This document shows, piece after piece, positions 5,649 to 36,728 of a stretch of DNA of 64,000 bases (the stretch's first letter is position 1; each line of letters starts with the position of its first letter). Under the pieces are notes generated by a model, which was not told the DNA's origin, ran no database searches, and was given only the letters and a program-made list of their open reading frames with translations. The position numbers and the translations under genes were made by a program. The DNA is from a virus, in the IMG/VR virus record IMGVR_UViG_3300018931_000001, positions 7,014-71,013 of that record. One strand, 5' to 3'.

Positions 5649-7118
5649 TTAAAAGAGAGAAAGTTGAGTTCCTTCAGTTGCCTTGAACCGATCGCGCGCC
5701 ATCTGTTCTTTTGCTTCAACTTGAAGCCCAGCTAAATAAATATCAAGCGCGTCAGGTTCGTCAAAAAATGTTTGATATCGTTGCAACACCATGTCCAGGC
5801 AATCAGCTATATAGCGCAAACACGGCACCGCCATAGAGTTGCCCAAAGCTTTGTAGCGCAAGCTATTAGGAGAATATGGCTTACCTCTCCAAGGAATGTT
5901 AGTGTAATCGTCTGGGAAGCCTTGCAATCGTTCGCATTCGATCGGGGTTAGCCTGCGAATTTCCCAACCCAAAACTTGCTTAACAACGACAGGAGAAATT
6001 TGATCGAGCGACCATCCACCAGAACCTTTTGCCAGTAAAGCATTAGAACTATTTTGGCGTAATGTCATTTGTCGGCAATCCACAGAATAGGCAATCGACG
6101 CGCCGCTAGCTGTGCTGCTGATATGCGATTTGTGAAAATTACCGGCCCTCAACGTCGGAGCGCATTCTTCTCTAGCGTCGCCACCAGCATCTACTTTGCT
6201 AAAGCCGACGGAGGGGAAGGCTACTGCCGAACTATTACCGCATTTACCGGCTCGCAAAGTTGGTGATAGTTCCGATTTAGCTCCGTTGCCGTAGTCAATC
6301 GAGCTAAATCCAACGGCGATCGGAATGTAGCAACCTACTCCGTCAATTCGGTTTCCGCCTCCACCGTGTCCTTGTCCGAGGGTGTCAGAGATTGGTGGAG
6401 GAAATTCAATGCGTGTTCCAGTGTCGGATGCAGCTTTTTTCCTCGTGCTTTGCTGCGACGAAGCAACCCGGACACAGCCGTTAAACTCAAATGATATCTC
6501 TCCAGGTATTGATAAAAATCGTCGGCTGTCGAACCAGGATGGCGCATTAACCAATCTTCCAAGTTTTCGAGAATCGACGACAACTGCGTAGACTCGTTCC
6601 CTATTTTGGGCGAGTCCGAAGTTTCGAGCATTGAGCGTTCGCCAGGCCACGGAGATATATTTTCCGGCAACCATACCTGCACGTCGCCATTTTCCGTCCG
6701 GTGGGTTGATTTCGTCTGAGCCGACAGTGCAGCCCAAAAACTTGCCCCAGGGATTCCCTGCTGCCGATAATATTCCTGGTACATTTTCATAGATGGCAAT
6801 AGCTGGTTGAATTTGTTTGAGTAATTCTAAGTATTGAAAGGTCAACATTCCTCGTGGATCGTCTAACGACTGCCGATCGCCTGCTACCGAGAAAGATTGG
6901 CACGGCGGGCCACCAATTACTATGTCAATTTTGTCGCGCCAGAGCGTCCCGTCTATTTTTGTGATGTCGCCAAGATTGGGTGTTTCTGGGTAGTGATGAG
7001 CTAATACGACACTGGGGAATTTCTCAATTTCGGCGCAAAATTTGAAGTTGTACCGATCAACTAGAGCGTGTTCTGGCGCTCCGATACCAGAGCAAAGTGT
7101 GGCAGCGCGTAGCTTCAT
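5649..7118 (-). CDS. C5 cytosine DNA methyltransferase (alpha chain)
   Basis: Motif I LCSGIG, IV GGPPCQSFS, VI ENVPG, VIII QNRERVY, RRLTPIECERLQGFPD, X YKALGNSM. Confidence 0.95.
   Translation of the reverse strand: MKLRAATLCSGIGAPEHALVDRYNFKFCAEIEKFPSVVLAHHYPETPNLGDITKIDGTLWRDKIDIVIGGPPCQSFSVAGDRQSLDDPRGMLTFQYLELLKQIQPAIAIYENVPGILSAAGNPWGKFLGCTVGSDEINPPDGKWRRAGMVAGKYISVAWRTLNARNFGLAQNRERVYAVVVDSRKLGRLVNAPSWFDSRRFLSIPGEISFEFNGCVRVASSQQSTRKKAASDTGTRIEFPPPISDTLGQGHGGGGNRIDGVGCYIPIAVGFSSIDYGNGAKSELSPTLRAGKCGNSSAVAFPSVGFSKVDAGGDAREECAPTLRAGNFHKSHISSTASGASIAYSVDCRQMTLRQNSSNALLAKGSGGWSLDQISPVVVKQVLGWEIRRLTPIECERLQGFPDDYTNIPWRGKPYSPNSLRYKALGNSMAVPCLRYIADCLDMVLQRYQTFFDEPDALDIYLAGLQVEAKEQMARDRFKATEGTQLSLF
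6335..6799 (-). CDS. Nested alternative-frame ORF inside the MTase (EcoHK31I beta-like polypeptide)
   Basis: 154-aa ORF in another frame with LSSILE...RYHLS..AVSGLLRRSKARGKKL...LEHAL. Confidence 0.7.
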   Translation of the reverse strand: MPSMKMYQEYYRQQGIPGASFWAALSAQTKSTHRTENGDVQVWLPENISPWPGERSMLETSDSPKIGNESTQLSSILENLEDWLMRHPGSTADDFYQYLERYHLSLTAVSGLLRRSKARGKKLHPTLEHALNFLHQSLTPSDKDTVEAETELTE

Positions 7119-13597: not shown

Positions 13598-13639
13598 TTA
13601 AAGCGAACCCTTAGTTTCAAAACTAAGAGTTCGCTTTAA
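13598..13639. terminator. Long bidirectional hairpin terminator between convergent genes
   Basis: ttaaagcgaac.cttagttt / aaactaag.gttcgctttaa. Confidence 0.75.
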
Positions 13640-26402: not shown

Positions 26403-27866
26403 ATGACAAGGGTTGTAGGTTACGCAAGAGTAAGCACAAAAGAGCAGGCAAACGACTCTAACGCCTTGCTTCAGCAAATCGATCGACTCAAAGCTGCTGG
26501 AGCAATTGAGATTTTTAGCGACGTGGAATCCGGGTGGAAGAAGAACACAAGACCGCAGCTTGAAGATTTGATGGCGCAAGTGCGATCGGGCAAAGTTACA
26601 GAAGTGATAGTAACTCGGCTAGACAGACTGAGCCGACAGGGCTTGAAAAGCTTTCAAATTTTTGAAGAATTTCTCAACGTGGGGGCGGTACTCAGAGCTT
26701 TAGACGAACCTTTTGACTTAACGACGGCGGCAGGGCGGGCGATGGCGGGACAGTTAATTGTGTTTGCCCAGTTCCACAGCGACCAAAAAGCGGAATCAGT
26801 TCGCGCTGGATGGGCGCACTTAAGAAACAAGAAGGTTGCGATGCAACCACCGTTTGGTTATCTTAAAGTTGATGACGCGCACATTTTAGACTGTCGCCCG
26901 TTTCTGTGCTTGCTAGATGATCGCCGAGAAATGTCAAAGTCGGAAATTGCCAGAGAAATTGTCGAAGCCTTTTTAAAACAACAAACTTTGCGGTTAGCGT
27001 TGCGCGAAATTAATGAGCGCTACGGGTTGAAAGTTTTTGCCCACAACAACACCGCTGGCAAAAAACTCGGGGGAAGAATCGCTCAGGACTTATTTCGTTT
27101 CTCGCCGGGAGGTCTGAAAAATTGGTTAACAAGTCCGGTTCTGCGCGGACACTTGGTTTACTTGCGAGGAACACCACGCGAGCAAATTTATCTAAATACG
27201 CATCTTGAGGCAAGACTAATCTCTGAAGAAGAAAGTCGGGAAATAGAACGCATTTTAAACTTCAACCGAAAAGTCCGGGGATTCGGAACTACTGCGCTTA
27301 AGTATCCCTGCTCTGGGTTGGTGTACTGCGCTCAATGCCGTGGGGCTTGCTATTCCATTTCGGGAGTAAACAACTACCACCGAGCAAAACGCTTAGGTAT
27401 CCCGATCGAACACAATCACTACTTTCAGTGTAACAACTGGCGATCACGAGCTTGCGAGAATAAAAAGACCATCAGAATGGAAATTGTTGAGAAATGTCTT
27501 GTTGTTAGTTTGATAACAAGGGCGCAGGCTATTGCCGACATTATGCAAACTGTTCCAGCTAAAGTTGAGTCTCCTCAAGTTAGAGCTTTGCGAGAACAAG
27601 TGCGGGCGCTGCGGGCGATCGGAGAAAACCCGGCAATTAACAGTGCAATTGTGGAAATAGAGAAGCAAATCTCGCAACTATTGCTAACAGAAGACAAAGA
27701 AATGATTGACAACGAATTTCAGCGCGAATTATTAATCTCTTGCTTTTCTCACCCAGAATTGTGGTTAGAAGCAGACATTGCAGATCGACAAAGAGTTTAC
27801 CGAGAACTAACAGACAAAATCTTAATATCAGACGGGGAAGTAGTGGACGTGGTATTAAAGATTTGA
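26403..27866 (+). CDS. Large serine recombinase/integrase (XisF-like architecture)
   Basis: GYARVSTKEQ (catalytic Ser), RPQLE, TRLDRLSR, PPFGY, Zn ribbon CAQC...YFQCNNW..RAC, coiled coil. Confidence 0.95.
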   Translation: MTRVVGYARVSTKEQANDSNALLQQIDRLKAAGAIEIFSDVESGWKKNTRPQLEDLMAQVRSGKVTEVIVTRLDRLSRQGLKSFQIFEEFLNVGAVLRALDEPFDLTTAAGRAMAGQLIVFAQFHSDQKAESVRAGWAHLRNKKVAMQPPFGYLKVDDAHILDCRPFLCLLDDRREMSKSEIAREIVEAFLKQQTLRLALREINERYGLKVFAHNNTAGKKLGGRIAQDLFRFSPGGLKNWLTSPVLRGHLVYLRGTPREQIYLNTHLEARLISEEESREIERILNFNRKVRGFGTTALKYPCSGLVYCAQCRGACYSISGVNNYHRAKRLGIPIEHNHYFQCNNWRSRACENKKTIRMEIVEKCLVVSLITRAQAIADIMQTVPAKVESPQVRALREQVRALRAIGENPAINSAIVEIEKQISQLLLTEDKEMIDNEFQRELLISCFSHPELWLEADIADRQRVYRELTDKILISDGEVVDVVLKI

Positions 27867-29433: not shown

Positions 29434-30048
29434 ATGGCGATCGCGAAGAAGTCCCGGAAGGGAACGAACAAGGCGACAGTAAAGGCGGTTAGAAGAGGAT
29501 GTAAGCACATGGTAACGGCAGCTCCACTGGTCAAATCAACGGAAGATGGTAAAGTCATGGTTCGCCTATTAGCAAACCTAGGAAGGGAGCTAGCGCGAGA
29601 GCTGGCGGATGCAATGGCTAAATACCATCAAGCGTCTGGTTTGGGGCTTGCCGATCGCCAGAGATTGGCTGAAATTCACTATTTACGTTTAGAGCAACTG
29701 CGGCGGGTAGAAAAAATAATCACGCCCGCCGCAACCCTCAAACGTAATTATCTAGATAGTGATTTGAGCTGTCTTAAAATTGTGTGGAGTAACGAACAAG
29801 GGGGCAACAAGTCCAAGACTGTCCCCCCTTCTTTTGATTGCGAATTGTCTAAATGCTTATTGAGAGGAGACAGTTTAGCTCAAATTCTTTATACAGCAGA
29901 AACAGGAAAAAGAACGTTTTCTGCCGATCCGGAAACTCATAAAAAAGGAATGATCCCTCAATGGGTTCGCGAGTGGGAGGAAAAAAACTACAGCCTTAAA
30001 TTTATTCCCCCTGACTTTGCTGATTGGGTGAAGATAAAACTTGATTGA
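29434..30048 (+). CDS. Hypothetical early protein
   Basis: 204-aa ORF followed by a hairpin at about 30092-30123. Confidence 0.7.
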   Translation: MAIAKKSRKGTNKATVKAVRRGCKHMVTAAPLVKSTEDGKVMVRLLANLGRELARELADAMAKYHQASGLGLADRQRLAEIHYLRLEQLRRVEKIITPAATLKRNYLDSDLSCLKIVWSNEQGGNKSKTVPPSFDCELSKCLLRGDSLAQILYTAETGKRTFSADPETHKKGMIPQWVREWEEKNYSLKFIPPDFADWVKIKLD

Positions 30049-30203
30049 TATCTAAATAATCAAGTTGTAATATTGAAATACACTATAGAGAAGGGAAAAC
30101 TAAAGCTGCGCTTAGTCTTCCCTATATTTGTCTAATTTGTTTTTCGTGGTATTAGAAAAATATTGTATTATCATATAATACTTATACTTGAGATTTGGTA
30201 AGC

Positions 30204-30386
30204 ATGACCAGCAGTACACCCAAAAGAATGACTTGCAGTATCACTGACGAACTGCTAACTGACCTTGACGAAGCCTGCTGGCTGAGCCGCACAAACTGAT
30301 CAAAGTTTGTCAGCAAGGGCGTGGCGGCTTATCTCAAGAAATTTCACAAAGCGAGGGAGAAGCAGCTCGAAACAACAGAGGCATAA
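30204..30386 (+). pseudogene. CopG/RHH regulator interrupted by TGA at 30297-30299
   Basis: KRMTCSITDELLTDLDEACWLSRTN*SKFVSKGVAAYL; the stop sits at the usual Arg of the RS motif; upstream IR GTATTA-N5-TAATAC at 30165-30181. Confidence 0.8.
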
Positions 30387-30387
30387 A

Positions 30388-30690
30388 ATGTCTGACTATA
30401 CAGTAAGAGGTCAAGTATTGCAGGTTTCAAAAGATCGTGTCTTAATTCATCTAAGTGGAATGATGGATGATGTTCGGTCAGATTGGATTCCTGTGCCATC
30501 GACAATGCCTCAATGGGCAAAAAAAGAAAACAGCCCAGTGTTTAAGGCAATTGTTAATATCGATGAAATAACAGAATTAACGTTTGAATACTTGAGGCAA
30601 AATCCTAACTGTTTGAAAAGATTTTCCTGTCGCCCAATGCCAAAGAATCTTGACTGGCTTTTTGATGATAGTGAACAATGCTCAGAATAA
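30388..30690 (+). CDS. Hypothetical protein (MSDYTVRGQ...)
   Basis: ATG immediately after the RHH TAA. Confidence 0.7.
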   Translation: MSDYTVRGQVLQVSKDRVLIHLSGMMDDVRSDWIPVPSTMPQWAKKENSPVFKAIVNIDEITELTFEYLRQNPNCLKRFSCRPMPKNLDWLFDDSEQCSE

Positions 30691-31076
30691 TCCTGAAAGG
30701 CAAAGTAGTCCCAAAAGCCAGACCTCGCCTTAGCGGACGTAAACACGTTCACCTACCGCCAAAATACGCTGCATGGAAACAGGAAGCTGTCCTCAATCTA
30801 AGAGACGTGAGGTACGTCGCTTCCGGCAAAGTCAGTCTAGAAATAACCTTTGTCAATGCTCTGCGCGAGAATGCTGACTGCGACAACGCAGCAGGTGCAA
30901 TTATGGATGCGCTTGTGGAGAGCGGAGTGCTGGTTGGCGATAGTGTTGGGACAATCAGCAAACTGGTTGTGGAAAACTACAAAGAGAAAAAACCGAAGAT
31001 TGCGTCGCAAACCCTAATTGTAATCAACAACAATTATGAAGCAAATATTGACAAGATTAGAGAGTTTTTAAACTGA
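30678..31076 (+). CDS. rusA: RusA-family Holliday junction resolvase
   Basis: GKVVPKARPR...ADCDNAAGAIMDALVESGVLVGDS. Confidence 0.9.
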   Translation: MLRIILKGKVVPKARPRLSGRKHVHLPPKYAAWKQEAVLNLRDVRYVASGKVSLEITFVNALRENADCDNAAGAIMDALVESGVLVGDSVGTISKLVVENYKEKKPKIASQTLIVINNNYEANIDKIREFLN

Positions 31077-31246
31077 ACCAGTTGCTTGATTCAAGCAGTA
31101 TCCCTCTTCACTGTCCAGATAAACTGTTTTGGTTTCCAAAATAACTGTACAGATAAGACGACAAAGGCACCCAGACAAGCAAATTGGCGCAACTGATAGC
31201 TCACGCCCCATCGCCACACCGCCCTACCGCGACACATTTCGCAATC

Positions 31247-31549
31247 TTGCGAGTAGTAACAACTCTTGTGTAATAATAGAGTCAGCTCAGTTTACCAGCC
31301 TCGGCTGTAAATGGGCAAAAAAATATCGCTCATGCTTGGCGGCGAAGCGATACCTCAAAGGATTCTCAATTCTGTTCAGATGCAAACTTTTTAAAGTTTG
31401 AATATTATTTCACGAGTATAGCATCAACACCTGTGAAACGTCAAATTTGCAGGAAATATCGAAAAATCTGGTAGAGTTAAGGGATTGAGGATTGTGTAGC
31501 TGCCAAGCATGAGCGAGTTCATTAATGAACTTGGCAAGGAAAGCTCATG
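31247..31549 (+). promoter_or_regulatory. Structured 5' leader of the helicase-primase operon
   Basis: Two hairpins (about 31285-31316 and 31324-31352); 15-nt complement 31326-31340 / 31502-31516; pairing over the start codon. Confidence 0.55.
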
Positions 31550-33271
31550 TTTATTCAACCAGTTACTTATAATCTCAGGGATTATCAAGAAAACCTCATC
31601 CGCCAGATATTCGCCAGTTGGCAGACCAAACGCAGTGTCATGCTGCAATTACCGACTGGTGGCGGAAAAACAATCTTGTTCGCATACCTCGCCCGCGAAT
31701 TTGCCAAAAAAGGAATGGGGGTACTGGTACTGGCGCACCGGGAAGAACTGTTACTGCAAGCTCAGGAGAAGTTAGAGGCAGTTACTGGAGTTCCGGCGGG
31801 AATAATTAAGTCCGGCTACCCGGTGTATTCTTACGATCTCCAGGTTGCCTCTGTTCAGTCTTTAGTCCGACGCAAGAACAAACCCGACGCGGGGCTGGTG
31901 ATTGTAGACGAGGCTCACCACGCATCTTCTAAGACTTACACCACAATTCTTCAAGCCTACCCAGAAGCTTATGTTCTGGGCTGCACCGCCACACCGCACC
32001 GGATCGACGGTCAAGGGTTCAAGTGGTTGTTTGACGAGCTAATTTGCGGCCCGTCAACAGGAGAGTTAATCGAACGGAAATACCTCTCGCGTTACAAGCT
32101 ATTTCAGGGCGTGAAAGTGGTGGACACTTCAAAAACCAAAACCACCGCCGGAGATTTCAATAAGGCAGCACTAGCCCACGAAGTTGATTTACAAATTGAG
32201 CCGATCGACGTAGTGAACGAATGGCGCAAACGAGCCAACGGGTTGCGAACCGTTGTCTTTGCGGTGGACATCGCCCATTCTCGGCAGTATGCAGAAGCAT
32301 TTTTAGAGGCTGGCATCATTGCAGAACACTTGGACGGGGCGACGGGCAAAGAGGATCGCCGGGATATTTTGCATCGGTTTGGAAGCGGGGAAACGACGGT
32401 GCTATGCAATTGCGGAATTATTTCGGAGGGTTTTGATTTACCTGCGATCGAGTGCGTTCAAGTTGTACGCCCCACCAAGTCGCTATCAATGTGGCTTCAA
32501 ATAGTCGGGCGGGGGCTTAGACCTGCACCAGGGAAAGAACACGCCGTAATTATTGATCACACTACTAATTGGAAATTTTTAGGACTTCCAGATGAAGATC
32601 GGGAGTGGACACTTGAACCAATAAGCATTGACAGCAGTGCAAAACGTTTCTTGCACATTGTTTGCACGGATTGCAACCACGCTTTTAAACCCCTGCCCCA
32701 CGAAACAAAAGCGCTGAAATGCGAATGCCCGAATTGTCGATCCATTCATTGTTTTGAGATTGGAGAGGGAGGTATAGCATTAACTGTCAAAACTTTGGAT
32801 GCGAACACCAAAGAGGAAGAGATTGATTTAGATGTCGATCCAGATCTCAAAGTTTTAATTGATTACTATTATGAGCTTTGTTCTGTGCACGGTCAAAGGC
32901 TAGCTTCTGTCTATTTCAATTTTGAGGAGGAGTGTCTAGACATTTTGCACAAGGTGTCTATTGGTACGTGGAGGTATCTAGCTCAGAAACTAGGATACAA
33001 GAAGGGGTGGGCTTGGTACAAGTGGAAAAACGCACAAAATCAAAGCAATATCAACGAAAAAACTTTGAAATCAATGCCTGCACACATAAATCCCAACAAA
33101 GCGGAAGGTAGGCGCAAATACATTAACTGGATTAAGCGTACAGGGTTTGAGCAGATTGAAGAGATGAAGCTAGGTAAGACTACATTTACCGCATCAGAAC
33201 TGGGGATAGGAGATGATGATTTTCTTGAATTACTGAAACCATTAACGGAAGACGACTTTATTGATTGGTGA
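31547..33271 (+). CDS. SF2 DEAH helicase (RadD/YejH-like) with Zn finger
   Basis: LRDYQ, LPTGGGKT, DEAHH, TATP, EGFDLP, QIVGRGLR, CTDC..CPNC. Confidence 0.95.
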   Translation: MFIQPVTYNLRDYQENLIRQIFASWQTKRSVMLQLPTGGGKTILFAYLAREFAKKGMGVLVLAHREELLLQAQEKLEAVTGVPAGIIKSGYPVYSYDLQVASVQSLVRRKNKPDAGLVIVDEAHHASSKTYTTILQAYPEAYVLGCTATPHRIDGQGFKWLFDELICGPSTGELIERKYLSRYKLFQGVKVVDTSKTKTTAGDFNKAALAHEVDLQIEPIDVVNEWRKRANGLRTVVFAVDIAHSRQYAEAFLEAGIIAEHLDGATGKEDRRDILHRFGSGETTVLCNCGIISEGFDLPAIECVQVVRPTKSLSMWLQIVGRGLRPAPGKEHAVIIDHTTNWKFLGLPDEDREWTLEPISIDSSAKRFLHIVCTDCNHAFKPLPHETKALKCECPNCRSIHCFEIGEGGIALTVKTLDANTKEEEIDLDVDPDLKVLIDYYYELCSVHGQRLASVYFNFEEECLDILHKVSIGTWRYLAQKLGYKKGWAWYKWKNAQNQSNINEKTLKSMPAHINPNKAEGRRKYINWIKRTGFEQIEEMKLGKTTFTASELGIGDDDFLELLKPLTEDDFIDW

Positions 33272-33344
33272 GGACTAGCGCAAGCATCTAATAAAAAAAC
33301 AGACCCGCCATTAGCAAGCCTGAAGAATCAAAAGAATTTATTTT

Positions 33345-36300
33345 ATGTCTTCCAATTTTACACCTCTTAAAGGCAATTGTCCAGTTTGCGACGGAGAAGA
33401 AAGAGATTGCCGTCAAAGTAAAATTACTGGTCTTTATCATTGCCGCACAGACAACCCAAGTCCCAATTTCACTTATATAAAACACGACGCGATCAATTTC
33501 GGTATGTATGTCGAAACCGCGTTAAGGTCTGAACAGAATGCTGAAAAACTAGCAGAACATAGACGCCAACAAAAAATAAACGAGCGAATCAGACTCGATC
33601 GTGAAGCCAAAGAAAGAGCGCAATTTCTCTCAGCCGCCGATCGAGACAGAGAAATCCGCAAAATCCTAAACCAGCTAACCCTTACCTCAGAACACAGGGC
33701 TGAGCTACGTCATCGGGGTCTGTCAGACAAGCAGATTGACAATGGAATCTTTCGCAGCGTCGGGCGATACGAAAAGTTACAACACCCCGTCAGTATTAAC
33801 CTTGCCGGAGTCTCAGCGGATACCAACGGCCGATCGCTAGTTGGCAAAGAACCTGGTTATCTTTGCCCAGTCTGGAACGGCGACGGGTTAATAATCGGCT
33901 GGCAAATACGACTGGACAATGACAAAGATTGTAAATATAAGTGGCCCACAAGCCGATGGCCGAAGCGTCCCAATGGGCCCACGTCTCACCAACAGAACGG
34001 CGAGATGCCCGTCACTGTTTGCCGACCCGCAATATTAAACGGCGACATTGACGCAATCGGAATCGTCGAAGGAATCCTGAAACCCAAGATTGCAGCGGAG
34101 CTCAGCGGAAAAGTTTTCATCGGTGCCGCCGGGGGGAACTTTGCCAGCAGCGCCAAGAGTTTCAAGATTGAACTTGACAAACTTTCAGCAGAATTTGACA
34201 CAAAGATAGTCAGGCTTTACGCCGACGCGGGTTCCACGGCGAACCCGAACGTGATGAGGGAATATCGAAAAACCCACAAGCTCGTCACAGAATGGGGATA
34301 CGAACTGCGGGTAGCTTGGTGGGGACAAAAAGAAAAATCTGCTGGCGACATTGACGATATTTTAGCTGCCGGAGACACGGACAAAATAACAGACTTATTC
34401 TGGAAGGACTTTGAGGAGATCGCCAGCAACAAGGCTTACAGAATGTTGAGAATGCTGGATGGTCTTAAGCGCAAAGTCAAGAAAGCCGCATCACCTATTT
34501 TTGGCGCTTCAACACCAGTTCGCGAGATTGAGACAATCCCCTACTTTGCCGGGGAACGGATAGAGACTTGGCAGAAGGCGACAGCGAAACATAAATTCAT
34601 CGTTGACACCAGCGGCACCGGAACCGGGAAAAGTTTTGACAGCGGACTGTGCGAGCCGGAAAGGTTCAACGCCGATCGCATCATCTACATTTCCAAAGAC
34701 CACCGCAACGCCAGCACCCCATCACTCAAGAATTGGGAAGATTTAGAAGCGCGCCACAAGGGCTTGACGCTAGATAATCTGGGCAATTGGCGGCGGGCAA
34801 AGGCGGACGATCGGGTTGAAGTTGGCGCTAGCTGCGATCGTACAGAGTTCTCTGCCGTGATGCGCGAGAAGAACATCTCCGGCAGCGACACCGCAAATCT
34901 AATGTGTCCAACCTGCCCGTCATTTGAGGGTTGCAGGGCCGGTGAGAAATTTGGGTTCTTGAAAGCCAGGACTGAAACACTGAAAAATACCCGATTCCGA
35001 TCGCACCCTGACTCTCTGCCAGGAACACAAACTTTCGGCTACGCCCCAGATGAAGAAGGAAAAGGTAAGGGCAAAGGAACAGTTTTAATCTGGGAAGAGT
35101 GGAGCGAGTGCCTGAGTTACAGCAAGGAAATCCAAATAAAGCAAGATGATATTGAGCACATTACTGCTGAATTGTTCTCAGCAGACAAGGACGCTTTTGG
35201 GTTGAACGAATGGATAGTCAGACTTTGGGAATTCAGCGCGGGCAAACATCCGATAGACCGCTGGGGAATGCCACACGATCAGGTATTAGAAATCCTGCTC
35301 CCCCTTGTCAAGGGGGAGACCGATATTGATGCGATCTCCCAAGCGACAAACCCCAACGAAAAAATCCAGTCAATATTGCACGGACTGGACGACCACGGCG
35401 TGTCACTTCAAGATTTGCCCGCGCACCTGCGGAAAAGTTTTGCGGAATCAGATGAACAGTTAGCAGAAAAAGCCCAGAGGATTGCCAAACAGTGGGTAGT
35501 GCCATTTTTGGAAGTGTTACTCGGACGTCGACCCGGACATGTCAGTCTCGACAACCGGGGAACCTTCACTTTGACGATCGCCAACCGCCGACTGATTGAA
35601 ATTGCCCACGCCGCTAAGTCCAATATTTTCCTCGATGCCACGGGCGACATTGACAAGTTTTGCAGGATTCTAGGAATTGACGCTGAGGACGTGTTCTGCA
35701 CCGCGCAAGTACCAACTCACAAGAGTGCGAAGTTAACTATCAAACAAGTAATTGACCACGGGCGGCTGGGGATTTCGCGGGGTGCGGAACAGGTGCGGGC
35801 GATCGACGCGATGGTTGCAGCTATTCGGGAGAAAGACTCAGAGGCTGCGGTTATTGACTTTAAGAAGTTTACCAGTGCCGAGCCAGGGCTTAATCTGAAG
35901 TGGCTGAGCGAGTCGCGGGGGTCGAATTTGGCTCAGAACGCGAAAACTTTAGTGCTAGTGGGGGCCCCTTGCCGCCCGATCGCTACGCTGGCGGCTGAGT
36001 TTACTTTGCTCTACGGGCGATCACCAAACATCGAAACCGAAGAGGTGACGAGGGAAGTTCGCCAAATTCGGAACGTTGTGAGACAGGAGGCGACGGTCAC
36101 GTCGAGGGAATCCGCCGATCAACAATTCCGGGACTACATATACAGGGATGTGCTAGCAGCAATTTCCCAAGGAATCGGTCGGCTGCGGGCGAACCGCCGG
36201 GAAGGAGAGGAGCTGACCATCTACTTTATTAGCAACTTTGTTTTGGACTTGCCAGTAGAGGTAGTTCCAGCCCTTGAAATCACGCTGGAGGCAGCTACAC

Positions 36301-36728
36301 CTTTTCAGAGGCTTGAGATAGCAATCCGCCGCGCCGGAGAGGAACTGCAAGCCAAGGGCAAAAAATTGACTCTGACTGCGATCGCTGATTACTGCCAAGT
36401 AACAAAACAGAGGGTTAGCCAGTTGGCTCGCGAACTGGGGTACGCCACTGCCGCCCACTTCAAAAAAAGTCTAGTTTTGCTTGTAGGTTCTCTAAGCAAA
36501 ACTAGACAAAATTTCCAAGAGTACATTCCTTTGGCGGCTGAAAAACAGATTGAATTGTGGGCAGCTCAGATTAGCTCGTTGCCCAAATCCGTAATTCTGG
36601 CGTTGATGGAATGGGCGACGGGGCTGCCGGAGTTGAGTGGCGAGTTTTTGGCTTTGGTTTGTGCGGATGCGGGGCGATCAGGCGATACCGCCGATCCAGG
36701 ATTTGAGGATTGGGACTTGGGATTTTAG
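33345..36728 (+). CDS. Primase-helicase Rep (Zn finger, TOPRIM/DUF3854-like, helicase, C-terminal HTH)
   Basis: CPVC, IVEGILKP, LYADAG, WWGQ..DIDD, SGTGTGKS, QGIGRLRA. Confidence 0.85.
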   Translation: MSSNFTPLKGNCPVCDGEERDCRQSKITGLYHCRTDNPSPNFTYIKHDAINFGMYVETALRSEQNAEKLAEHRRQQKINERIRLDREAKERAQFLSAADRDREIRKILNQLTLTSEHRAELRHRGLSDKQIDNGIFRSVGRYEKLQHPVSINLAGVSADTNGRSLVGKEPGYLCPVWNGDGLIIGWQIRLDNDKDCKYKWPTSRWPKRPNGPTSHQQNGEMPVTVCRPAILNGDIDAIGIVEGILKPKIAAELSGKVFIGAAGGNFASSAKSFKIELDKLSAEFDTKIVRLYADAGSTANPNVMREYRKTHKLVTEWGYELRVAWWGQKEKSAGDIDDILAAGDTDKITDLFWKDFEEIASNKAYRMLRMLDGLKRKVKKAASPIFGASTPVREIETIPYFAGERIETWQKATAKHKFIVDTSGTGTGKSFDSGLCEPERFNADRIIYISKDHRNASTPSLKNWEDLEARHKGLTLDNLGNWRRAKADDRVEVGASCDRTEFSAVMREKNISGSDTANLMCPTCPSFEGCRAGEKFGFLKARTETLKNTRFRSHPDSLPGTQTFGYAPDEEGKGKGKGTVLIWEEWSECLSYSKEIQIKQDDIEHITAELFSADKDAFGLNEWIVRLWEFSAGKHPIDRWGMPHDQVLEILLPLVKGETDIDAISQATNPNEKIQSILHGLDDHGVSLQDLPAHLRKSFAESDEQLAEKAQRIAKQWVVPFLEVLLGRRPGHVSLDNRGTFTLTIANRRLIEIAHAAKSNIFLDATGDIDKFCRILGIDAEDVFCTAQVPTHKSAKLTIKQVIDHGRLGISRGAEQVRAIDAMVAAIREKDSEAAVIDFKKFTSAEPGLNLKWLSESRGSNLAQNAKTLVLVGAPCRPIATLAAEFTLLYGRSPNIETEEVTREVRQIRNVVRQEATVTSRESADQQFRDYIYRDVLAAISQGIGRLRANRREGEELTIYFISNFVLDLPVEVVPALEITLEAATPFQRLEIAIRRAGEELQAKGKKLTLTAIADYCQVTKQRVSQLARELGYATAAHFKKSLVLLVGSLSKTRQNFQEYIPLAAEKQIELWAAQISSLPKSVILALMEWATGLPELSGEFLALVCADAGRSGDTADPGFEDWDLGF
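36469..36507. repeat. Perfect 14-bp inverted repeat within the Rep gene
   Basis: gtctagttttgctt-N11-aagcaaaactagac. Confidence 0.85.

Follow-up and report, generated by a model that had tools for sequence, protein, structure and literature searches.

A leader cassette with a long-range RNA helix and a predicted antisense RNA gene ahead of replication genes in cyanobacterial phages

The IMG/VR virus record IMGVR_UViG_3300018931_000001 represents a temperate phage of a filamentous cyanobacterium, in which a gap of 470 nt without a supported gene lies between a RusA resolvase gene and the gene of an SF2 DNA helicase. The subject here is a cassette of about 300 nt at 31247-31549, which closes with the helicase start codon. 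Positions are those of the stretch analyzed, called the window (64,000 nt, positions 7,014 to 71,013 of the record), which is most of the 71,013-base record. The two genes and the elements of the cassette are as follows:

30678-31076: RusA resolvase gene
31247..31277, + strand: P1, candidate leader promoter, TTGCGA at 31247-31252 and AATAAT at 31272-31277, at the left edge of the conserved cassette
31285..31316, + strand: SL0, two-tier 5' stem-loop with inner CAGC-CUCG-GCUG at 31296-31307; it folds in all five copies described below
31317..31323, - strand: seven A on the + strand, equivalent to the U7 tail of a predicted terminator on the minus strand; the run is A7 in four copies and A9 in L261 and adjoins the 5' side of SL1 in each
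31317..31408, - strand: predicted antisense small RNA (sRNA) of about 92 nt, with a 5' hairpin (31400..31383), a spacer, a terminator hairpin (31352..31324) and U7
31324..31352, + strand: SL1, target stem-loop, TATCGCT/AGCGATA
31326-31343, + strand: arm 1 of helix H1, comprising the 5' stem half and loop of SL1
31347-31358, + strand: 5' strand of helix H2, GCGATACCTCAA, paired with 31485-31495 in duplex and minimum free energy (MFE) predictions
31444..31415, - strand: P2, putative convergent promoter that ranks first among the promoter-like sites of the region (10 of 12); TTGACG-18-TATACT, the -10 preceded by TG
31485-31495, + strand: 3' strand of H2, TTGAGGATTGT
31499-31516, + strand: arm 2 of H1, the distal site, nearly identical in sequence to the 3' hairpin of the predicted antisense RNA
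31516..31531, + strand: HP hairpin, adjoining arm 2 on its 3' side; its stem covaries in four of five copies
31536-31540, + strand: Shine-Dalgarno-like AAGGA, followed by the helicase start codon at 31547-31549
31547-33271, + strand: SF2 DNA helicase gene, presumed to be under control of the cassette; Pfam ResIII and Helicase_C, phrog_16 'DNA helicase' (E 3.9e-99)

The helicase start codon is backed by the N-termini of the closest homologs. Five full copies of the cassette are present in four cyanobacterial phage or prophage records:

window copy, 31247-31549: before the SF2 helicase gene
L163a, on metagenome contig L163: before the gene of an SF2 helicase 80% identical to that of the window, the closest one found
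L163b, L163:5555-5841: between the helicase and a D5-like DNA primase
L243, on a 188-kb IMG/VR contig: before the gene of a replication initiation protein, away from the helicase of that contig
L261, in genome G440 of the Microcoleus family: before the gene of a replication initiation protein

The metagenome and genome collections were reached via the helicase; L243 was found by DNA search of records reached via other loci, L261 by pattern search of 144 Microcoleus-family genomes, and L163b by an nhmmer profile of the known copies. The alignment of the upstream 320 nt of L163 with the window begins at the TTGCG motif at 31247 and does not reach further left, and a Shine-Dalgarno sequence and start codon close every copy. 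A contig of 192 nt from one run is a fragment that carries another variant of SL1, known from 30 letters on each side.

Three unrelated replication genes follow these copies, coding for a helicase, a DNA primase and a replication initiation protein, and the proteins in question span 574 to about 1140 aa. The primase behind L163b has Pfam DUF3854 and DUF5906 and matches phrog_864 (E 5e-34); the initiators behind L243 and L261 match phrog_4707 (E 8e-14 and 5e-9), with Pfam HTH_36 just below the cut-off. The open reading frames (ORFs) that follow the helicase in the window (33345-36728) and on L163 (L163:5839-9258, a DUF3854/D5_N/DUF5906 primase) are not homologous (best BLASTP E 0.15), so that the cassette moves independently of the genes behind it; the difference looks like replication-module shuffling beside a conserved helicase. 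A second cassette copy was not found in the window, where the equivalent place (33272-33344) holds 73 nt only. Judged by the genes it precedes, the cassette is modular.

At the core of the cassette are two distant complementary segments. TCGCTCATGCTTGGC at 31326-31340 has its exact reverse complement at 31502-31516, and the two 15-mers have no further exact copy in the window or elsewhere in the 71,013-base record; a sequence-only reading of the region had pointed to this pair, and the strings that it quoted stand where it placed them. The repeat extends to 18 nt (31326-31343 and 31499-31516, 17 of 18 complementary, 155 nt between the arms), and the single mismatch is a G opposite T, i.e. a G.U pair in + strand RNA. 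While H1 takes in the 5' half and loop of SL1, H2 is formed by the 3' half of SL1 and the bases after it, pairing just upstream of arm 2; its equivalent in L163a, L243, and L261 is GCGAUACCC / GGGUAUCG. In all five copies the whole of SL1 is mirrored by the distal site through 25-30 pairs (13-18 bp in H1 and 10-11 bp in H2), and the full-leader MFE structure holds both helices. The stem TATCGC/GCGATA of SL1 is invariant in the five copies and its loop is hypervariable. A hairpin had been predicted here with a TTGGCGG loop; the hairpin itself is present, but the loop was only approximate, as the actual stem, TATCGCT/AGCGATA at 31324-31352, encloses 15 nt with two or three possible inner pairs. 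The arm sequences differ among copies, with complementarity kept in five of five, as in these pairs of arms:

window: UCGCUCAUGCUUGGCGGC / GCUGCCAAGCAUGAGCGA
L163b: UCGCUC-C-GCCGGCAAGC / GCUUGCCGGC-AU-GAGUGA
L243: UCGCUGAUGCCUU / AAGGCAUUAGCGA
L261: CGCUGAUGCCUGG-A-AGCUC / GAGCU-CCAGGUGUUGGCG

In 225 helicase-homolog loci, helices that join -330..-95 to -85..+6 (G.U allowed) reach at most 15 pairs, in three loci, and the longest one per locus has a median of 10, compared with 18 in the window. The longest-helix count was used as background instead of RNAduplex energies, which were dropped for these loci as dominated by length and GC content. Within the cassette, the duplex of the upstream hairpin with the distal site of the window has an energy of -51.6 kcal/mol, against -20.0 +/- 3.5 for shuffled sequences (0 of 500 as good). 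Cognate duplexes of the five copies range from -37.8 to -51.6 kcal/mol (z -5.4 to -9.0), with 0 of 500 shuffles reaching any of the five; among the cross-combinations the cognate partner ranks first in its row in five of five and in its column in four of five.

Covariation was examined in a plain MAFFT alignment of the five leaders, where RNAalifold gives H1 as the sole consensus helix, with 13 pairs; four of these are changed on both sides, five on one side, and four are invariant. Of the 64 alignment cells of H1, 92.2% pair, compared with 26.6-46.9% when the partners are slid by 1-3 columns, and the covariation score is 0.415 against 0.255 for shuffled alignments, two of 500 shuffles being as high. 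The outer part of H1 in L163b is wholly different yet perfectly complementary (GCCGGCAAGC / GCUUGCCGGC). When the distal sites of the five copies are compared with the reverse complement of SL1, there are 129 matches, 22 mismatches, and 15 gap positions, and the transition mismatches comprise 12 G.U on the + strand and one A.C (probability of at least 12 of 13 at 0.5, 0.0017). Drifting DNA repeats would be expected to give G.U and A.C equally, so the 12:1 ratio argues for selection on a + strand RNA helix. The folding energy is -95.9 kcal/mol on the + strand (z -6.4) and -77.6 on the minus strand (z -4.3), the + strand being better by 18. Covariation in related phages, which the sequence-only reading had named as a check, was borne out, the pairing being kept in all five copies through two-sided changes and G.U wobbles. 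These comparisons indicate that the long-range helix of the + strand is under selection, and a regulatory role of this pairing at the ribosome-binding region is the most economical reading.

Inverted repeats around a promoter could also be recombination sites flanking an invertible 155-bp segment, with P2 driving the helicase once inverted. The repeats do enclose a near-consensus promoter directed away from the gene, and a serine recombinase gene lies at 26403-27866; however, this recombinase is a large serine integrase (phrog_95, 487 aa) and not a small invertase. All five copies have one orientation, the L261 repeats are poor as DNA (23 matches, 6 G.U-type transitions), and neither the 12:1 one-strand G.U bias nor a U7-9 run that would end the P2 transcript after about 90 nt is expected of, or has a role in, such a DNA switch. 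Contigs of four DNA runs show no strand-changing joint and no leader sequence variation, which is weak evidence as contigs drop rare variants. A DNA switch is therefore considered very unlikely.

Directly 3' of the helix lies the 16-bp palindrome at 31516-31531, which was correctly described as perfect and is unique. As a fixed 16-bp site it did not hold up: among the copies it takes the form of an RNA hairpin whose stem covaries and whose loop has 3-6 nt, and a loop of changing length speaks for RNA structure rather than for a fixed site bound by a protein. An operator palindrome was rejected on the same comparison, as was a small toxin ORF, neither being conserved across copies. The four versions of the hairpin are given below; L261 has no clear equivalent.

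window: AGUUCA-UUAA-UGAACU
L163a: AGUUUA-UUAAA-UAAACU
L163b: GAAUUC-AUUUAU-GGAUUC
L243: GAGUUUC-AGA-GAAACUC

The length of the helix and the position of this hairpin suit a further explanation, in which the ~30-bp helix and the ~90-bp duplex of sRNA and leader would be RNase III substrates whose cleavage would shorten the leader and set mRNA stability or translation, with HP as a protective 5' end. The window has 18 bp and 11 further pairs, all five copies have 25-30 pairs, and HP is directly 3' of the helix in four of five; passages of a review also describe OOP RNA as promoting cII mRNA decay via RNase III (PMC12197685). No cleavage-specific feature can be read from the sequence, and RNase III processing as the explanation is judged quite unlikely, although cleavage may be a downstream step of the competition model set out below.

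The + strand leader carrying these elements probably starts near 31284 from P1, to judge by the motifs. TTGCG[AC] is present in four of five copies and an xAxAAT hexamer in all five, with spacers of 16-19 nt, and the gene upstream of the L243 cassette is divergent, so the leader promoter there must lie inside the cassette. The terminator scan lists no terminator-like site on the leader strand between the arms in any of the five copies, and co-transcription of both arms is plausible. SL0, at the 5' end of this leader, has an inner closing pair that covaries (C-G in the window, A-U in L163a, U-A in L163b). Two further candidates on this strand were rejected: a third promoter at about 31447-31477 (TTGCAG-19-TAGAGT), which is not kept in L243 and L261 and is not listed by the scan, and a leader peptide. 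The ATG at 31311 is absent in L243 and L163b, and that at 31509 is absent in L243, where it is ATT; the leader ORFs differ in length (27, 19, 88, and 6 codons). The ATG at 31509 is indeed upstream and out of frame with respect to the helicase ORF, which starts at 31547, and opens an ORF of 88 aa in the window, but as a feature of the leader it failed, the corresponding ORF in L163a having six codons.

On the minus strand, between the two sites that form the helix, P2 is the best promoter-like match in each of the five copies, with scores of 10, 10, 10, 12, and 11 of 12. In the copies other than that of the window it reads TTGACG-18-TATAGT, TTGACG-18-TATCAT, TTGACA-18-TATAAT, and TTGACA-18-TAAAAT; the hexamers and the 18-nt spacing are kept in all five, the spacers differ in sequence, and in four copies a TG stands before the -10. 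The RNA predicted to start from P2 would be 92, 101, 65, 91, and 81 nt long in the five copies and, assuming a transcription start site 7 nt after the -10, would always begin with AUA(A/G)(U/A)AU. Its 5' hairpin is short and covarying, and the spacer before the terminator is variable. The conserved A7 has no evident role on the + strand and would complete an intrinsic terminator on the minus strand. The promoter and terminator signals of the predicted antisense gene are thus conserved as sequence. SL0 of L261 (L261:1454-1489) is a 16-bp hairpin of two GCGATCGC palindromes, which are HIP1-like; UAUUUU comes after this hairpin on the minus strand, and the scan flags it as terminator-like, so that the antisense transcript may have a second stop there.

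The sequence-only reading had explained the pairing without such a gene, through mutually exclusive folds of one strand that switch helicase translation, conceptually like P1 C4, P4 CI or Gifsy-1 IsrK. In that case SL0-SL1, in cis or released, would repress by pairing with the distal site, and the minus-strand RNA would be an anti-repressor or a by-product of a promoter acting by transcriptional interference. The conserved + strand pairing fits this proposal, as do SL0 and SL1 as compact, conserved 5' structures, and in a short context the window fold does pair CAUGAG with CUCAUG over the start codon. That local pairing is the MFE structure in a 51-nt context but not in a 97-nt context, in which the AUG pairs with 31493-31501. 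The complementary strings themselves exist, but neither CAUGAGC/GCUCAUG nor UGCCAAG/CUUGGCA is conserved, and the start-hiding alternative fold was not upheld, since masking SL1 leads to pairing of the AUG in the window only (unpaired probability 0.58 to 0.05) and not in L163a, L243, or L261. Of the two phage regulators, c4 covers the ribosome-binding site (RBS) and CI causes termination, both from the same strand and with no convergent antisense gene known. The helix here ends 20-30 nt before the Shine-Dalgarno sequence and leaves the RBS uncovered, unlike c4; no convincing + strand terminator or processing signal follows SL1 in the five copies; the AU-rich hairpin at 31383-31400 is absent in L261; and there is no Rfam match to C4 or IsrK, so membership of either family was not substantiated. 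P2 and the U-run, which are the best-conserved signals, would be left without a role. A same-strand riboregulator is accordingly viewed as rather unlikely: of the leader as first conceived, selected + strand pairing before a replication gene stands and the same-strand switch with local alternatives does not. The predicted convergent promoter and terminator of the minus strand shift the analogy from P1 c4 and P4 CI to plasmid counter-transcript systems.

Region 31247-31549 is read here as a self-contained counter-transcript RNA control cassette for a phage replication gene, closest to the systems of IncI-alpha and IncB plasmids, with about an even chance of being correct. A + strand leader from P1, starting near 31284, would carry SL1, and some 150 nt farther on, beside the ribosome-binding region, a site complementary to the whole of SL1 would allow a two-part helix of about 30 bp. 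P2, between both sites, would give an antisense RNA of 65-101 nt ending in the complement of SL1 and a U-run. The predicted antisense RNA is exactly complementary to SL1, and the sequence of its 3' hairpin recurs nearly unchanged in the distal site, so RNA and distal site would compete for SL1. If the antisense RNA captured SL1 during leader synthesis, the distal site would be left alone and no long-range helix would form; if it did not bind, the helix would form. Provided that the helix favors translation, the antisense RNA would be a repressor. With low leader transcription, as in lysogeny or for a superinfecting relative, the replication genes would be silent, and with P1 outrunning P2 they would be expressed. 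We infer the co-transcription of the arms, the competition between the RNAs, both transcripts and the sign of the effect.

The sign of control depends on what the helix does at the RBS. The distal site ends 20-30 nt upstream of the Shine-Dalgarno sequence, so the ribosome site would not be occluded, and RBS accessibility is higher with the helix in three of the four copies computed:

L163a: 0.59 with the helix, 0.38 with SL1 masked
L243: 0.63 with the helix, 0.52 with SL1 masked
L261: 0.82 with the helix, 0.56 with SL1 masked
window: 0.47 with the helix, 0.48 with SL1 masked

These modeled values weakly suggest that the helix activates and the antisense RNA represses. The architecture is much better supported than the sign of control.

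Several results weigh against counter-transcript control as set out here. The gain in accessibility is modest, and the AUG is freed in only one of the four copies computed, that of the window (0.05 to 0.58). The two covariation measures based on counts, of pairs or of pair types, fall short of significance (106 of 500 shuffles as high), and since the copies are few and partly related, the window copy being close to L163a and L243 close to L261, the covariation statistics are thin. SL1 of L163a pairs better with the distal site of L163b than with its own (-39.8 and -37.8 kcal/mol), so that the two cassettes of that contig are not clearly orthogonal. The predicted sRNA folds no better than shuffled sequences (z -1.65, 13 of 200 as good). 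The SL1 hairpin is not listed by the terminator scan because its loop exceeds 8 nt, beyond the limit of the scan. P1 passes the sigma-70 scan criteria in one of five copies, L261 (TTGAGA-17-TAGAAT, 10 of 12), and that of the window, with its 19-nt spacer, is not listed by the promoter scan. P1, P2, and the terminator are matches to a consensus, and both transcripts are predictions.

The closest known systems are those of the I-complex plasmids (ColIb-P9 repZ, IncB pMU720 repA) and of IncL/M. Counter-transcript control with an activating long-range pairing is textbook material for a few groups of enterobacterial plasmids, and the pseudoknot of the I-complex consists of a few base pairs. The antisense-plus-pseudoknot arrangement of the I-complex is reportedly treated by Asano and Mizobuchi in 1998, which is part of the basis for this comparison; another part is titles in the reference lists of two articles (PMC10724649, PMC8053102). 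Passages of the second of these describe, for IncI1 and IncB plasmids, a pseudoknot that RepZ translation requires and that an antisense RNA blocks, and, for R1 CopA/CopT and IncI2, a constitutive counter-transcript of about 90-108 nt that acts on translation against the repA leader (PMC8053102).

As in the I-complex and IncL/M plasmids, the leader of a replication gene is faced on the other strand by an antisense RNA gene (predicted here from sequence signals present in five of five copies), a distal site shortly before the RBS can pair with the loop of a target stem-loop (H1, five of five), and the antisense RNA and the distal site share sequence and the same target bases, which here follows by construction. 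Unlike those plasmids, the cassette has no conserved leader peptide (repY/repB) or translational coupling, occurs in phages and prophages of filamentous cyanobacteria and not in enterobacterial plasmids, pairs through 25-30 base pairs over both halves of SL1 in place of a short pseudoknot, and precedes helicase and primase genes as well as initiator genes. There is no sequence or Rfam similarity, so the cassette is regarded not as a member of the I-complex family but as a variant of such a mechanism that stands on its own. R1 CopA/CopT and IncI2 likewise have a counter-transcript of similar size against a replication-gene leader, but they have a leader peptide (Tap, RepR) and no long-range activator pairing, whereas the leader ATGs of the cassette are not conserved.

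The likeness to P1/P7 c4, P4 CI, and Gifsy-1 IsrK is that of phage RNA regulators in an early leader, where an upstream element pairs with a downstream site of the same unit; their regulators are same-strand, while the cassette has a predicted convergent antisense gene. In type I toxin-antitoxin systems such as hok/sok, the mRNA folds back into a long-range helix, and a convergent promoter within the 5' leader gives a short antisense RNA. The cassette resembles hok/sok in both respects but is followed by genes of large replication proteins, and no small toxin ORF is conserved in it. ColE1 RNAI/RNAII and the origins of mycobacteriophage prophages also have replication controlled by a sense/antisense RNA pair, and by analogy the leader could be a primer precursor at an RNA-primed origin, with the antisense RNA as its inhibitor. 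The cassette adjoins replication genes, has an AT-rich conserved block (31383-31410), and includes a predicted sense/antisense pair; RNA-based prophage origins have been described, and the passages concerned report that a sense/antisense pair controls replication and that the antisense RNA alters folding of the sense RNA (PMC7157519). In those systems, however, the sense RNA is a primer, whereas every cassette copy runs directly into a Shine-Dalgarno sequence and start codon; two copies stand on one contig before two consecutive genes, and the phage carries an integrase. An RNA-primed origin is held to be highly improbable.

For counter-transcript control of this architecture, no earlier description was found. 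A cmscan with Rfam 15 (E <= 1; window 30000-33000, L163, L243, and L261) gave no match inside the window, L163, and L243 cassettes; the families in question are presumably C4 antisense RNA, IsrK, CopA, RNAI, and ctRNA. A weak match to BTnc201 overlaps the L261 cassette (32.8 bits, gathering score 105). The literature searched, supplements excluded, contains no description of such control for phage replication genes or cyanobacteria. A 2025 review of phage-derived sRNAs covers sar, OOP, aQ, IsrK, CfrI, and others; its passages present IsrK as activating translation of a downstream ORF and mention no sRNA of this architecture and none for cyanophage replication genes (PMC12197685).

The cassette looks rare in the collections searched, with one occurrence in 144 host-family genomes and no real one in a sample of 401 genomes of the order; it is present in two IMG/VR records, including that of the window, and one metagenome contig. 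A blastn search of 30600-32200 against 50,697 public phage records gave no match, and the single helicase protein gave no close relative in IMG/VR. In IMG/VR, an exact 29-mer of the conserved block had 0 matches and a 21-mer hit two stretches, one of them by chance. A loose hairpin pattern gave more than 117 stretches, of which 80 were inspected and the sole real one was the known G002 copy; the same filter recovered L261. A tighter pattern gave four stretches, three of them unrelated coding DNA. The 401 genomes sampled from the order gave only short weak blastn matches, and the pattern matched in 38 of them, with the P2 signature in 0 of 32 loci and all six inspected being unrelated. The 144 Microcoleus-family genomes gave one match by the pattern (G440) and one by covariance model, while covariance model R1, for the antisense sRNA, found only the five seeds over 48 sources. 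Among the weak blastn matches in the order, 31426-31472 (the P2 -35 and the bases to its right) drew seven of 15 (24-42 nt, 83-96% identity, E 8e-5 to 3e-3); this recurrence could be due to chance or to a shared short motif. Relatives of the initiator in IMG/VR added two further loci, whose leaders are different. In 85 of the 144 family genomes, the C-terminal half of the L243 and L261 initiators (about 230-400) has a match in a protein of about 410 aa (E 1e-14 to 1e-25; example loci L414-L441), which appears to be a widespread cellular or plasmid relative. Just upstream of the G440 cassette, the gene at L261:849-1454 has a Bro-N-like N-terminus, recognized by eye, which fits a prophage context.

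Named relatives of the window helicase belong to filamentous cyanobacteria (Microcoleus, Moorena, Okeania, Planktothrix), and the DNA of the window was recovered in four DNA runs, all biocrust metagenomes of one study, possibly the source of the window record; no RNA run was among those listed for it. Other features of the window mentioned here for context are:

13598-13639: strong inverted repeat, a 20-nt pair, 95% complementary, with a 2-nt gap
26403-27866: large serine integrase, phrog_95, 487 aa
33345-36728: ORF of 1127 aa with no Pfam, PHROG, or PDB sequence match; CxxC and GTGKS motifs
36469-36507: strong inverted repeat, a perfect 14-nt pair with an 11-nt loop
42170-43573: terminase

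If the counter-transcript model holds, temperate phages of crust-forming cyanobacteria of the Microcoleus type would gate their helicase, primase, or initiator with an RNA module of about 300 nt that needs no protein, and this module would pass between replication modules that are otherwise unrelated. A bolder and doubtful extension is that the cassette is a portable unit of immunity and incompatibility of cyanobacterial prophages, in which the invariant stem would be combined with a hypervariable loop as a specificity code, the resident antisense RNA silencing incomers with the same loop and those with other loops escaping. Were this true, a plug-in post-transcriptional gate could stand before any replication gene, twice in one genome, without a protein repressor. 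The five matched triples of sense RNA, antisense RNA, and distal site, with their different specificity loops, would be a natural set. The model, if correct, would provide a new RNA family (leader and sRNA) for annotation resources and a compact, probably host-independent regulatory part for cyanobacterial genetics, as well as a testable mechanism for the silence of prophage replication and for immunity between related phages.

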